From contig JAUSJC010000010.1 of the NCBI GenBank assembly GCA_030647775.1, positions 200,718 to 264,717 on the forward strand: a stretch of 64,000 nucleotides of DNA, written 5' to 3'. The notes under the pieces are model-generated. The model was not told the DNA's origin and did no database searches. It saw only the letters and a program-made list of their open reading frames with translations. The translations under genes were made by a program, and so were the position numbers. This document shows positions 18,225-22,055 of the stretch, in pieces (the first letter of the stretch is position 1; each line of letters opens with the position of its first letter). This DNA comes from Candidatus Curtissbacteria bacterium. Its GTDB lineage: Bacteria; Patescibacteriota; Microgenomatia; Curtissbacterales; GWA2-41-24.

Positions 18225-19379
18225 ATGAAACTTTTTAATAGTTCCGCCAAAAAAGAGGAAGCTGTTGATCTTTCAAAACCCATCGGTATCTATGTCTGCG
18301 GCGTAACCCCATACGATACAACTCACCTCGGTCACGCTTTTACATTCATAACTTACGATGTTTTGGTCCGCTATCTAAGATTTCTTGGTGCCAAAGTTGC
18401 TTATGTGCAAAATGTTACCGATATTGACGACGTCATTTTAATCAAGTCAACATCCATTGGAGTTAATTGGAAAAAACTTGGGGAAAAAGAGACTAAAAAC
18501 TACCTTGCCAATATGGATTCGTTAAATATGCTTCGTCCGGATTTTTATCCTCTTGCCACCGACCACATTACTACGATGATACGAATCATCGTAGTACTTT
18601 TAAAAAGGGGTTTCGCATACGAGAAAAATAAATCCGTATACTTCAGTATCAAGTCTTACAAAAAATTTGGCCAGCTTTCTAAATATGGTTATGACGCCAT
18701 GCTGCAAATTGCCAATGACCGCGGCAACTTCCCGCTTGACCCCGATAAAAATGACCCTCTGGATTTTGTGCTCTGGCAGGCGCAGAAACCTGGTGAACCG
18801 GCTTGGAATTCACCATGGGGAAAGGGTCGTCCCGGTTGGCATATTGAATGTTCGGCTATGTCCATAAAATATCTGGGCCCGACTGTAACAATCCATGGCG
18901 GGGGAGAGGATTTAATTTTTCCTCACCATGAATGCGAAATTGCCCAAAGTGAAAATTACACAGGGAAGCAGTTTGTAAAAATCTGGATGCACACCGCTAT
19001 GGTTTATTGTCAAAACAAAAAAATGAGCAAATCTCTTGGCAACATGATTTTTGTCCACGACCTCTTAAAAAAATATTCGGCAAACGAAATTCGCCTTTTT
19101 CTCCTAATGCACCACTGGCGCCGTTCTTGGAATTATCAGGAGTCGGATCTTAAAACTGCAGAAATTTTAGCCAAAATATTTGAGTCTCAATCTAAAGATG
19201 GGAATTTAAAAAAAGACGAGCTTAAAAAACTAATCCCGGATTTTTTCCATGCCCTGGATGATGATCTTAACACCCCAGATGCAATTACCGCCCTCGACAA
19301 CTTCGCTAAATCAAACGCGCAAAATAAAGGCTCGGTTATTAAAAATTGCTCTGAAATTCTTGGACTGCGGTTTAGCTGA
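18225..19379 (+). CDS. CysRS paralog, MshC-like cysteine ligase
   Basis: CGVTPYDTTHLGH, GRPGWHIECSAM, FPHHE, KMSKS; no C-terminal anticodon-binding domain. Confidence 0.8.
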   Translation: MKLFNSSAKKEEAVDLSKPIGIYVCGVTPYDTTHLGHAFTFITYDVLVRYLRFLGAKVAYVQNVTDIDDVILIKSTSIGVNWKKLGEKETKNYLANMDSLNMLRPDFYPLATDHITTMIRIIVVLLKRGFAYEKNKSVYFSIKSYKKFGQLSKYGYDAMLQIANDRGNFPLDPDKNDPLDFVLWQAQKPGEPAWNSPWGKGRPGWHIECSAMSIKYLGPTVTIHGGGEDLIFPHHECEIAQSENYTGKQFVKIWMHTAMVYCQNKKMSKSLGNMIFVHDLLKKYSANEIRLFLLMHHWRRSWNYQESDLKTAEILAKIFESQSKDGNLKKDELKKLIPDFFHALDDDLNTPDAITALDNFAKSNAQNKGSVIKNCSEILGLRFS

Positions 19380-19872
19380 CTATTTCGAGCTTGCGAGAAA
19401 CAAGCTTTCTTATTTTAATTTCGATAATTCTGTAGTCTGCTTTTCCGCTTGGCGAATAAACGCTAACAATATCCCCAACCCTTTTTCCAAGAAGCGCACT
19501 GCCGATTGGCGAGCTGTCGGAAATTTTCCCCTTTAAGGGATCAGCTTCTTGCGCGCTGACTATTGTAAATTGCATATTATCTTCGCCGGCATTAATTACC
19601 ACTTCGTTTCCAAAACCGACAATTTCCGCTTCCTCGGCTTGTGTTACTTCGCCAAGCCGCATCATTAGTTTTAACTCGCGGACGCGGCTGTCTATTTTTC
19701 CAAGTTCTTCTTTTGCCGCGTGGTAGCCCGCGTTTTCCGAAAGGTCTCCCTGTTCGCGCGCGGCCACAAGCCGCGTCAAAACCCCCGGCCTTCTGGCGGC
19801 AAGCCCCTCAAGTTCTTTTTTTAGGTTTTCAAAGCCTTCCGGCGTAAATTTAAAGCTCGGTAGTTTTCTCAC
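19372..19872 (-). CDS. greA: Transcription elongation factor GreA family, paralog 1
   Basis: GDLSENAGYHAAKE, SPIGSALLG. Confidence 0.9.
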   Translation of the reverse strand: MRKLPSFKFTPEGFENLKKELEGLAARRPGVLTRLVAAREQGDLSENAGYHAAKEELGKIDSRVRELKLMMRLGEVTQAEEAEIVGFGNEVVINAGEDNMQFTIVSAQEADPLKGKISDSSPIGSALLGKRVGDIVSVYSPSGKADYRIIEIKIRKLVSRKLEIVS

Positions 19873-20006
19873 AGAACAATTATATAAGCACGAATAGAAA
19901 ATTTGTTAATACCAAAATCTTCCGTTGGCACTGGTTTATCCTTCGTACTCGAAGGGTTGACTATGCTGGAACGTTCTATTTGAGTATCTAAGGCTGTTCT
20001 TTGAAT

Positions 20007-20636
20007 TTATGCAAGAGATTTAATCAGTTCAGGTAATTTCTCGAATTGTGAAGTAATTGCATCTACGTTTTTATACTGACTTTGTGAAAAAATAATCACC
20101 TTCATGCCTGCAGCTTTCCCTGCAACAATGTCGTTTTCGACGTCGCCAATATAAACTGCTTCTCTGGGACTTATATTTAGCTTTTGACATGCCAGAAGAA
20201 GCGGTTCTGGATGAGGTTTATGGTTAATAGTGTCTTGATAGGAGATTGTAACCTTAAAATACTTTTGTAATTTTGCAAGGGCAGGAGCTTCGTAAACACT
20301 TTCTTTAATCCGACTTGTAACAATCCCAAGAGAATATATTTTGCTTAAAGTTTCGATGACTTCCCCTGCCTTTTCAGGCATAGTCAACAATTCAAGATGA
20401 TATTTTATTTTACGACTTCGTCCTGTTTCCCATATTTGTTTAATTTCTTCATCTGAGGTGGATTTTGTAAGAGTTTTGATTGCGTCCATCATGCTCAAAT
20501 GAAAAATCGGGGGAAATTCTTCTCTTGTTGGTGGTCGATAACCAACTTTCGTCATTAAATCTTGAAAGAATTTTAAGTTTGCCTCAAATGAATTAAGTAA
20601 AACGCCATCAATATCAAAAACTACCGCTTTTATCAC
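20007..20636 (-). CDS. HAD-superfamily hydrolase
   Basis: FDIDGVL, KPHPEP, GDVENDI. Confidence 0.9.
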   Translation of the reverse strand: MIKAVVFDIDGVLLNSFEANLKFFQDLMTKVGYRPPTREEFPPIFHLSMMDAIKTLTKSTSDEEIKQIWETGRSRKIKYHLELLTMPEKAGEVIETLSKIYSLGIVTSRIKESVYEAPALAKLQKYFKVTISYQDTINHKPHPEPLLLACQKLNISPREAVYIGDVENDIVAGKAAGMKVIIFSQSQYKNVDAITSQFEKLPELIKSLA

Positions 20637-20672
20637 AACGTTATTATAGCAGAGTTTGAAGCTAAATGAGGG

Positions 20673-20743
20673 CTGCGGGACTAGGATTCGAACCTAGATA
20701 AACGGATCCAGAATCCGTTGTCCTACCATTAGACGATCCCGCA
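20673..20743 (-). tRNA. tRNA-Gln (CTG)
   Basis: TGCGGGA/TCCCGCA acceptor stem, ACGGA-TTCTGGA-TCCGT anticodon arm, GGTTCGAATCC T-loop. Confidence 0.95.
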
Positions 20744-20746
20744 AAG

Positions 20747-21013
20747 CTACCTACTTAATTGCTTTAAACTATTTTCAATCTTTCCTTTTAAGACTTCTCT
20801 CCCGTAACCAGATTTGTAAAACTTTTCTTGTTTAAGTGCGTCCTCTTCAGTTAAAAATGCTTCATAAAATACAAGTTTATACGGCCTATTATCTCTAGTA
20901 TATTTGCCTCCAATTCCGTCGTTATGCTCTCTAAACCTGCGCCTTAAATCATTTGTTGATCCTGTATATAATCTTTTATTCTTCAGACTTAATAAAACAT
21001 AAACGTAATACAT
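20747..21013 (-). CDS. Stand-alone GIY-YIG endonuclease, 88 aa
   Basis: MYYVYVL..LYTGSTNDLRRR..H..EKFYKSGYGR. Confidence 0.9.
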   Translation of the reverse strand: MYYVYVLLSLKNKRLYTGSTNDLRRRFREHNDGIGGKYTRDNRPYKLVFYEAFLTEEDALKQEKFYKSGYGREVLKGKIENSLKQLSR

Positions 21014-21018
21014 AAAAG

Positions 21019-21083
21019 TCCGTTGTCCCTGCCTCATCGGCAGGTCGCCGAAGAGGCGACTACCATTAGACGATCCCGCAAAG
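21019..21083 (-). pseudogene. Duplicated 5' half of tRNA-Gln interrupted by two mini-palindromes
   Basis: Matches 20714-20746 apart from an insert at 21029-21059. Confidence 0.85.
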
Positions 21084-21320
21084 TTAAATCCTTCTTTTCA
21101 AATATGCTCTACCAAAACCTGTTTTTAATTGTTTTTCTCTTCATATAGCTTTTTCCTTAGACAAACACGCTTCGTAGTAAATCAAAATTAATGGAACTCT
21201 ATTTTTTGTTGAGACAACTAGTTCTTGATTGTGAGCTTTTACTCTTTTTTCTAGATTGTCAGTCCAACCTGTGTATAAATTTCCATCCGTTTTGCTTTTT
21301 AACACATAGGTAAAGTACAT
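21084..21320 (-). pseudogene. Second GIY-YIG endonuclease with an in-frame TGA
   Basis: MYFTYVLKS..LYTGWTDNL..KEKAI*REKQLKTGFGRAYLKRRI*. Confidence 0.85.
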
Positions 21321-21408
21321 ACCATTAGACCTGCCCGCAATGCTACGCTCGCCAGAAACGCTGTATCTACTGCGAGCTGGCATAGCGTTGCAGGCGGGCG
21401 ACTCCGCA
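21320..21408 (-). pseudogene. tRNA-Gln-like 5' fragment split by a 69-bp nested family C element
   Basis: Minus strand tgcggagtcg[element 21330-21398]tctaatggta. Confidence 0.75.
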
Positions 21409-21488
21409 TCGCATTAAGATTTTAGCATTTTTAGCCTGCTTTGGATAATTTTGTTAAATTTCTTGAACTTGCTATAGTAGAAGTGTAA

Positions 21489-22055
21489 ATGGCCGGTTCA
21501 AGAGCAGAATTCGTCAAACAAATTCCCGAAACTAAACTTTCCCGCCTGCTTTTTGCGGACACCCGCCTGGCAGTCATTTGGCTTATTATCAGGGTTTATG
21601 TTGGCTGGCAATGGTTTTTTGCCGGTTATGAAAAAGTTATCAGTCCTGCTTGGACAGGGGATAAAACCGGAATGGCGCTCAAAGGTTTTCTTGCCGGGGC
21701 CATTTCCAAGGCTTCCGGTCCGCATCCCGATGTCCAGGATTGGTACGCAGCCTTCTTAAACGGTTTTGTGCTCCAGCACACGACACTTTTTTCCTATATG
21801 GTCGCCTACGGTGAACTTTTAGTTGGTATTGCTCTTATTCTTGGAGTTTTTACGGGAGTGGCGGCCTTTTTTGGAGCTTTTATGAATATGAACTACCTCC
21901 TTGCCGGTACCGTTAGCACAAATCCTATTTTGTTATTGCTCGAAATCCCAATTATTATCGGTTGGCGGGTTGCCGGCTGGTTTGGGCTGGATCGTTTCAT
22001 TTTGTCAAAATTTGGAGTTCCCTGGCACCCCGGACCATTTTTCAGGAAAAAGTAG
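21489..22055 (+). CDS. DoxX/TQO family membrane protein
   Basis: RVYVGWQW..G.EK, GELLVGIAL, AGTVSTNP, G.D. Confidence 0.85.
   Translation: MAGSRAEFVKQIPETKLSRLLFADTRLAVIWLIIRVYVGWQWFFAGYEKVISPAWTGDKTGMALKGFLAGAISKASGPHPDVQDWYAAFLNGFVLQHTTLFSYMVAYGELLVGIALILGVFTGVAAFFGAFMNMNYLLAGTVSTNPILLLLEIPIIIGWRVAGWFGLDRFILSKFGVPWHPGPFFRKK

Follow-up and report, generated by a model that had tools for sequence, protein, structure and literature searches.

The known system closest to the one described here is that of the Ssn proteins, single-domain GIY-YIG enzymes of about 90 amino acids with matching Tyr, Tyr, and Glu residues, whose genes likewise lie beside a cognate hairpin (NTS/SRM) (PMC11893778). SsnA itself (94 aa) binds the hairpin and cleaves single-stranded DNA immediately upstream of it, and Chenal et al. 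proposed in 2025 that NTS-ssnA-NTS is an IS-like unit and that there are many co-evolving pairs; the main text of their paper does not contain the word "tRNA" (PMC11893778). A second point of reference is SegB of phage T4, a GIY-YIG gene that sits among tRNA genes and spreads with them; we also count as a likeness that it is co-transcribed with the tRNAs and preceded by a hairpin proposed to damp translation (PMC2330249). SegB departs from the proteins described below in several ways: a C-terminal part of it binds DNA, its cuts fall in double-stranded DNA at the T-loop/3' end, its homing takes place between homologous phage genomes, and no tRNA 5' duplication is reported for it (PMC2330249). 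Integrase islands resemble our locus in that an intact tRNA and a displaced fragment surround foreign DNA and in that they form tandem arrays. In the Islander collection, 159 of 3919 islands have a 5' fragment, yet such islands need an on-board tyrosine integrase and were filtered to 2-200 kb (PMC4383910). The units described here carry only a nuclease and are about 0.3 kb long, so that the Islander pipeline would discard them.

Two further comparisons concern how such elements move and how their host genes survive. REP/RAYT and IS200/IS605 elements differ from the present case in that they are mobilized by a Y1 (HUH) transposase, and the organellar elements that duplicate part of their host gene include free-standing cases. 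What the former share with our locus is short hairpin repeats that can nest in each other and whose insertion causes no obvious duplication of the target. The main text of one paper on such systems does not contain "GIY" (PMC3733652). The organellar elements share a second, sometimes foreign, copy that keeps the gene alive, as in the N-terminal duplication in Tremella, whereas they reside in mitochondrial protein genes, are driven by intron or multi-domain endonucleases, and lack cognate hairpins (PMC8393795). The available text of one other paper mentions neither GIY nor CPR nor hairpins (PMC9897764), and no description of the present cassette design was found in the literature searched, which was largely openly accessible.

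The window analyzed here is a stretch of 64,000 nucleotides from a genome of 0.97 Mb. On its minus strand, an extended -10 promoter-like box (21419..21427), whose promoter function is putative, lies 10 nt ahead of fragment 1a (21399..21408), which corresponds to nt 1-10 of tRNA-Gln in an acceptor allele other than that of the intact gene. There follow the 69-nt hairpin A (21330..21398), with a nested 33-nt insert at 21380-21348 and an RNA fold z score of -4.55 for 21330-21400, and fragment 1b (21320..21329; tRNA nt 11-20), the last base of which is the A of the start codon of GIY-YIG #1 (21084..21320; 78 codons, broken by a TGA at codon 60). The second unit starts with fragment 2a (21060..21083; 3 nt plus tRNA nt 1-21) and continues with hairpin B (21028..21059), a 32-nt double hairpin with a single copy in the genome, fragment 2b (21019..21027; tRNA nt 22-30, identical to the intact gene at 9/9 positions), and the intact, single-domain GIY-YIG #2 (20747..21013; 88 aa). 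Three nucleotides further on lies the intact tRNA-Gln(CTG) (20673..20743), recognized by ARAGORN and by Rfam RF00005 (64.7 bits) and the only tRNA-Gln(CTG) called in the genome. Both GIY-YIG open reading frames score above the Pfam cut-off for PF01541 (#2 with an E value of 1e-19), and the cassette units measure 337 bp and about 325 bp. Fragment 2a is also the left copy of an exact 24-bp repeat (20723-20746 = 21060-21083), each copy of which abuts a stop codon and which would arise by chance with a probability of about 1e-7.

The original prediction, made from the letters of the window alone, had described the -10 box, the two GIY-YIG frames, the intact tRNA-Gln downstream, the overlap of the #1 ATG with a tRNA fragment (at tRNA nt 20), and the stop codons abutting one 24-bp repeat, and all of these were recovered. 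Both of its tRNA fragments are present as well, although neither is continuous: the first (nt 1-20) is split by hairpin A after nt 10, and the second is not a contiguous nt 1-30 because hairpin B sits between nt 21 and nt 22. It had missed both hairpins as well as the stop codon inside #1. A tRNA intron was rejected, since the complete tRNA comes after the inserts, whose removal does not rejoin one tRNA, and no Rfam intron family matched at an E value of ≤10. The absence of an integrase at the locus, also part of that prediction, holds: the genome has four tyrosine recombinases, the nearest about 200 kb away, and the units neither carry such an enzyme nor approach the 2 kb or more of integrase islands.

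Where the tRNA originally stood can be judged from the promoter motif. Among cassette-free tRNA-Gln genes of the family, 26 of the 26 tested have an extended -10 motif within 60 nt, 8 to 12 nt ahead of the gene in 16 of them. The box at 21427-21419 is the only such motif between 21430 and the tRNA, and it is likely to be the original tRNA promoter. Given its distance of 10 nt, comparable to that in most cassette-free genes, fragment 1 would mark the original position of the tRNA, and the cassettes do lie between promoter motif and tRNA, as predicted. No 3' remnant of an old tRNA was found within 1.7 kb downstream of the intact gene. The 10 nt of fragment 1a equal the first 10 nt of the intact tRNA-Gln(CTG) in a genome of the same genus (G001) and in G016, G009, G022, G014, and G020; at nt 6-7, fragment 1 differs from the window's intact tRNA and matches this other allele of the family.

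Related genomes show different states of the locus. In G015, from another genus of the family, a short hairpin A and then an uninterrupted #1 lie between the fragment and the tRNA, without #2, and this cassette adjoins the same nrdR-nrdJ and 5-formyl-THF cyclo-ligase genes as in the window (gene names were read from translations). In G001, the tRNA-Gln lies in the cysS-PCD interval, inverted and without a cassette. This interval is rearranged between the two genomes of the genus (L147:7265-7340 in G001, 19372-22055 in the window), holding metK and the inverted tRNA-Gln in the former and greA, a HAD hydrolase, the cassettes, and DoxX in the latter. Across 40 tRNA-Gln genes from 25 genomes of the family, a GIY-YIG gene lies upstream in 5 and downstream in 7, and an upstream 5' fragment accompanies 12. 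#2-like genes were absent from 26 of 26 family genomes (E ≤ 1e-28) and hairpin B from 31 of 31 others of the family; the two co-occur in distant CPR genomes. Relatives thus include empty sites, a #1-only state, and other two-gene arrays (L155 with Gln, L037 with Cys, and L176 with Lys; L187 repeats one unit), not the fixed identical arrangement that would have spoken for a single local event. Such an event, a one-off tandem duplication, would account for two similar-sized units in a row and for the exact 24-bp repeat, yet it is refuted by the single-cassette state in G015 together with the sequence divergence, and we grant it only a vanishing chance: the two proteins are merely 42% identical, which rules it out, their DNA does not align beyond 19 nt, their hairpins differ, and the closest relatives of each unit are in other genomes.

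The simplest order, we infer, is that #1 inserted first and #2 then entered the tRNA behind it, #1 having since died through its stop codon and the nested hairpin insert. The TGA (21143-21141) lies ahead of the conserved catalytic Glu62. A code that reads through TGA was rejected, given that TGA ends 113 of the 369 long open reading frames in the genome. The #1 ortholog in G015 is an open reading frame, and a 577-nt contig of sequencing run X3, 94% identical to 21060-21401, carries a sense codon in place of the TGA; its other 231 letters do not align with the DNA upstream in the window, and no contig spanning the locus was found in other runs. #1 and its G015 ortholog share 90% of their amino acids and 46 of 68 third codon positions, compared with 60 to 76% of amino acids and 566 of 1212 third positions for gltX, cysS, nrdR, and nrdJ (Fisher P = 0.001), a transfer signal read from only 68 codons of an AT-rich gene; by this sequence comparison the #1 gene is shown to be younger than the divergence of its hosts. 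What the locus contributes is an array dated to two steps, in which the two nuclease-hairpin pairs differ. With its anatomy, the empty and single-cassette states of relatives, and the pairing of nuclease and hairpin described below all directly observed, we consider it probable that two unrelated mini GIY-YIG and hairpin cassettes inserted successively into the 5' part of tRNA-Gln, leaving a dead front piece and an intact tRNA downstream.

In #2, the PF01541 domain covers residues 1-72 of 88, and Y5, Y16, G18, R26, H30, and E63 are invariant in 42 aligned homologs; #2 thus has the superfamily's Tyr, Tyr-Gly, Arg, His, and Glu residues, and #1 is cut before its Glu. The predicted model of #2 (pLDDT 95) suggests that the protein consists entirely of the nuclease fold and two short helices, with no separate DNA-binding domain, and its nearest solved folds are UPF0213 and Slx1, structure-specific nucleases that cut branched DNA. 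Compared with Seg-type enzymes, #2 scores far below the cut-off of TIGR01453 and has no separate C-terminal DNA-binding region; filled and empty alleles of one locus do exist in relatives, as for Seg-type genes. At the present locus, the target 24-mer is restored unchanged. Its size, 88 aa in a single domain, agrees with that of Ssn proteins (cd10448). In a quick tree of 83 columns with few well-supported branches, used only for separating the #1 and #2 groups, both lie apart from two genes of the genome that we take, judging by motifs, to be Ssn-like. Unlike in Ssn, the cassettes are set within duplicated 5' parts of tRNA genes, and their hairpins have other sequences. The SRM pattern occurs 6 times in the genome, but within 500 bp it occurs 0 times beside #1 and #2 and also 0 times beside the two Ssn-like genes, so that this comparison has no working positive control. 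Those Ssn-like genes of another group (G000:C6:70071-70274 and C7:478890-479078) are flanked by GTCAT-tagged inverted hairpins that do not match the published SRM pattern.

Homologs were surveyed by protein similarity alone, yielding 14 #2-like loci from 400 genomes of the class and 400 of the phylum and 27 #1-like loci. All 14 #2-like genes have a same-strand tRNA starting within 25 nt downstream of the match (9 Gln, 3 Gly, Leu, and Ser), and 13 have an exact piece of the same tRNA's 5' end upstream. Among #1-like genes, 22 of 27 have a same-strand tRNA downstream, of 10 amino-acid types (Asn 7, Gln 5, Leu 3, Lys, Val, His, Thr, Ile, Gly, and Met), and on visual inspection four of the remaining five precede an interrupted or contig-cut tRNA 5' part. 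Hairpin A precedes 24 of the 27 #1-like genes and none of the 14 #2-like genes; hairpin B, searched by pattern, precedes 7 of the 14 #2-like genes and none of the 27 #1-like genes, with reversed or variant forms in some others. P values given here are overstated because kin are not independent. According to these counts, the nuclease group is a better predictor of the hairpin than of the tRNA. Hairpin B occupies the same place beside #2 homologs in distant CPR genomes, with T-A/C-G stem swaps, and a 36-nt form of hairpin A without the nested insert occupies the same place in G015 and G042. A pattern scan of metagenomes for hairpin B found four loci, all with a #2-like gene and tRNA-Gln, which were kept out of the counts because the pattern included tRNA bases.

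The association that the original prediction expected between stand-alone GIY-YIG genes and duplicated tRNA 5' ends thus exists near #1 and #2 and fades with distance. In the best 80 of 261 relatives from the species collection, a tRNA lies directly downstream in 20 and upstream in 15, with none on the other strand, leaving 60 of these more distant homologs without a tRNA directly downstream. Seven of the 80 have at least 63% identity; six of these show the full design, and the contig of the seventh ends at the gene. Mobility, recurrence at tRNAs, arrays, and the lack of a linked integrase are borne out by relatives and survey.

These patterns bear on whether the nuclease is the agent of movement or a passenger. 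The hairpins might instead be moved in trans, by a REP-type Y1 transposase or by a reverse transcriptase acting on precursor RNA, with nuclease genes carried along between hairpin and tRNA. Three Y1 transposases and one reverse transcriptase are indeed present in the genome, GTAG precedes hairpin B as in GTAG-type REPs (PMC3733652), and nuclease-free scars were found. Relatives of hairpin A form about 60 palindromes dispersed in the genome far from any nuclease gene, six of which have a tRNA within 300 nt; the 69-nt nested form itself recurs once, as a 94% identical copy near tRNA-Asp (G000:C7:497479-497547). In G016, moreover, the same tRNA-Gln fragment and nested hairpin A are followed by an unrelated 111-aa open reading frame and then the intact tRNA (L084:1500-2059). 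This frame has no Pfam match and a motif that we take to be HNH-like, and its position in the same slot implies that the GIY-YIG gene is replaceable. This HNH-like frame, together with the Y1 transposases and the reverse transcriptase encoded outside the locus, provides the strongest evidence against the preferred reading. Nonetheless, a passenger model predicts neither the pairing of nuclease and hairpin across tRNA types and hosts nor invariant catalytic residues, and these enzymes are all unlinked to the locus (no Y1 transposase within 250 kb, in contrast to REP/RAYT and IS200/IS605), so that movement in trans appears unlikely to us.

It is even less plausible, and in our view improbable, that these are host-useful repair or defense nucleases gathering at tRNA promoters, the fragments being by-products of recombination at tRNA hot spots. 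The UPF0213 and Slx1-type folds of the nearest solved relatives and the 10 such genes in the genome would fit a host function, yet presence is patchy (one GIY-YIG candidate in G001, up to 18 in other genomes), broken copies are frequent (#1, L161, and L162), and the hairpin-in-fragment design is fixed. The preferred reading, that the cassettes are selfish and invade tRNA genes across CPR bacteria without an integrase, is likely on the sequence evidence. Named homolog records are mostly from Patescibacteria, for which reason we take the window's genome, too, to be that of a CPR bacterium. Two viral-contig scans for a phage vector gave one distant match each (37% and a 22-residue piece, respectively), with neither a cassette nor a phage-borne close copy of its nuclease in the contigs scanned.

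The duplicated tRNA piece distinguishes the preferred reading from classical homing, in which the nuclease would cut a double-stranded empty tRNA gene and recombination would copy in a cassette with its carried replacement 5' half, the process that the original prediction had assumed. Of the 49 loci considered, a downstream tRNA was present in 45, and the alignment was good enough for scoring in 40; in 35 of these 40 (the alignment favors identity, and L143 and L165 may be one locus), fragment nt 1-7 equal the local tRNA, with 26 different acceptor heptamers. The duplication reaches at least 3 nt upstream of the tRNA in 11 loci, and 47 nt in L001 and 49 nt in L194; the 68-bp duplication in L001 (L001:1390-1790) takes in the final 15 nuclease codons, within which an extended -10 motif lies. 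A fixed cargo cannot give such a local match, while copying from the target or later homogenizing can, which argues against both the fixed replacement half and homing as originally stated.

Homing has a precedent in SegB, which belongs to the free-standing GIY-YIG homing endonucleases and cleaves tRNA genes (PMC2330249), and the tRNA is sometimes donor-derived. At fragment 1 of the window and in 5 of the 40 scored loci, fragment and intact allele differ. A minority of cases, fragment 1 among them, have an intact tRNA whose two acceptor strands both belong to another allele; in L107, L117, L123, and L142, a whole different intact allele is enclosed by the two halves of the old gene. The window's tRNA-Gln, moreover, differs from that of G001 at 22 of 71 positions and from that of G007 at one; other tRNA-bearing matches to G001 are 85 to 96% identical (some with flanks). 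On the other side, the 88-aa protein, unlike SegB (PMC2330249), has no separate DNA-binding domain, the regenerated tRNA is an unchanged target that was struck again here, a single nuclease group is found at many types of tRNA, and hosts share no DNA beyond the tRNA itself, their flanking genes being 62 to 70% identical. We therefore judge homing to be about as improbable as movement in trans. Both outcomes, target copying or homogenizing and the arrival of a donor allele, seem to occur, and the identity of fragment and tRNA could stem from later gene conversion instead of copying at insertion. Elsewhere in the genome, intact tRNAs (Gly, Lys, Arg, and Thr) are flanked by the 5' and 3' remnants of an older copy, partly in hairpin arms (G000:C4:69780-69960, C7:523548-523747, C4:79869-80113, and C5:27993-28170).

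By analogy with SsnA, successive insertion could proceed as follows. The nuclease would bind its cognate hairpin in single-stranded DNA and nick beside it, and the structured D-arm region of a tRNA may be a preferred landing place. Repair at the D-arm would join the incoming piece and copy 15 to 70 bp of the target or, less often, install the donor's tRNA allele. Insertions that fail to restore a single-copy tRNA would be lethal, for which reason only tRNA-restoring ones would be seen, and the restored tRNA could then be invaded by another cassette. A single transcript from the old tRNA promoter is predicted to contain both the nuclease mRNA and the tRNA.

The cassette is real and recurrent, apparently undescribed, and likely a selfish element, akin to nuclease-plus-repeat and to tRNA-restoring elements. 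It is tempting to speculate further, as a possibility we hold tentatively and find somewhat doubtful, that it represents a new class of minimal transposable element whose sole enzyme is a GIY-YIG protein of 80-90 aa, in which each nuclease clade mobilizes itself along with its cognate hairpin, inserts into the 5' arms of tRNAs, restores or replaces the tRNA on landing, and drives a constant turnover of essential tRNA genes across CPR bacteria. If the preferred reading holds, these cassettes, at about 0.3 kb, would rank with the smallest autonomous mobile elements and would be the first direct example of what has so far only been proposed, that single-domain GIY-YIG nucleases move themselves together with hairpin repeats. 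It would also account for the numerous fragments of tRNAs, tRNAs nested in one another, and exchanges of alleles in CPR genomes that island finders discard for their size, and would point to very small hairpin-guided nucleases as possible tools. The present locus, with two natural nuclease-hairpin pairs side by side, is suited to comparing their cross-specificity.

Variation on this design is found in several directions. Many other, more distant homologs lie between inverted repeat arms away from tRNAs; in L031, L032, L058, L071, L073, and L017, the GIY-YIG gene occupies the loop between such arms, some inside or at the start of protein genes, and these loci resemble an insertion sequence whose only gene is the nuclease. 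In L153, L156, L161, and L164, the nuclease frame runs into the intact tRNA-Gln and ends at a TAA in the D-stem. In L177 (1735-1900), the tRNA-Asn after a #1-like gene is itself interrupted at the anticodon loop by what looks, by eye, like a group I intron.
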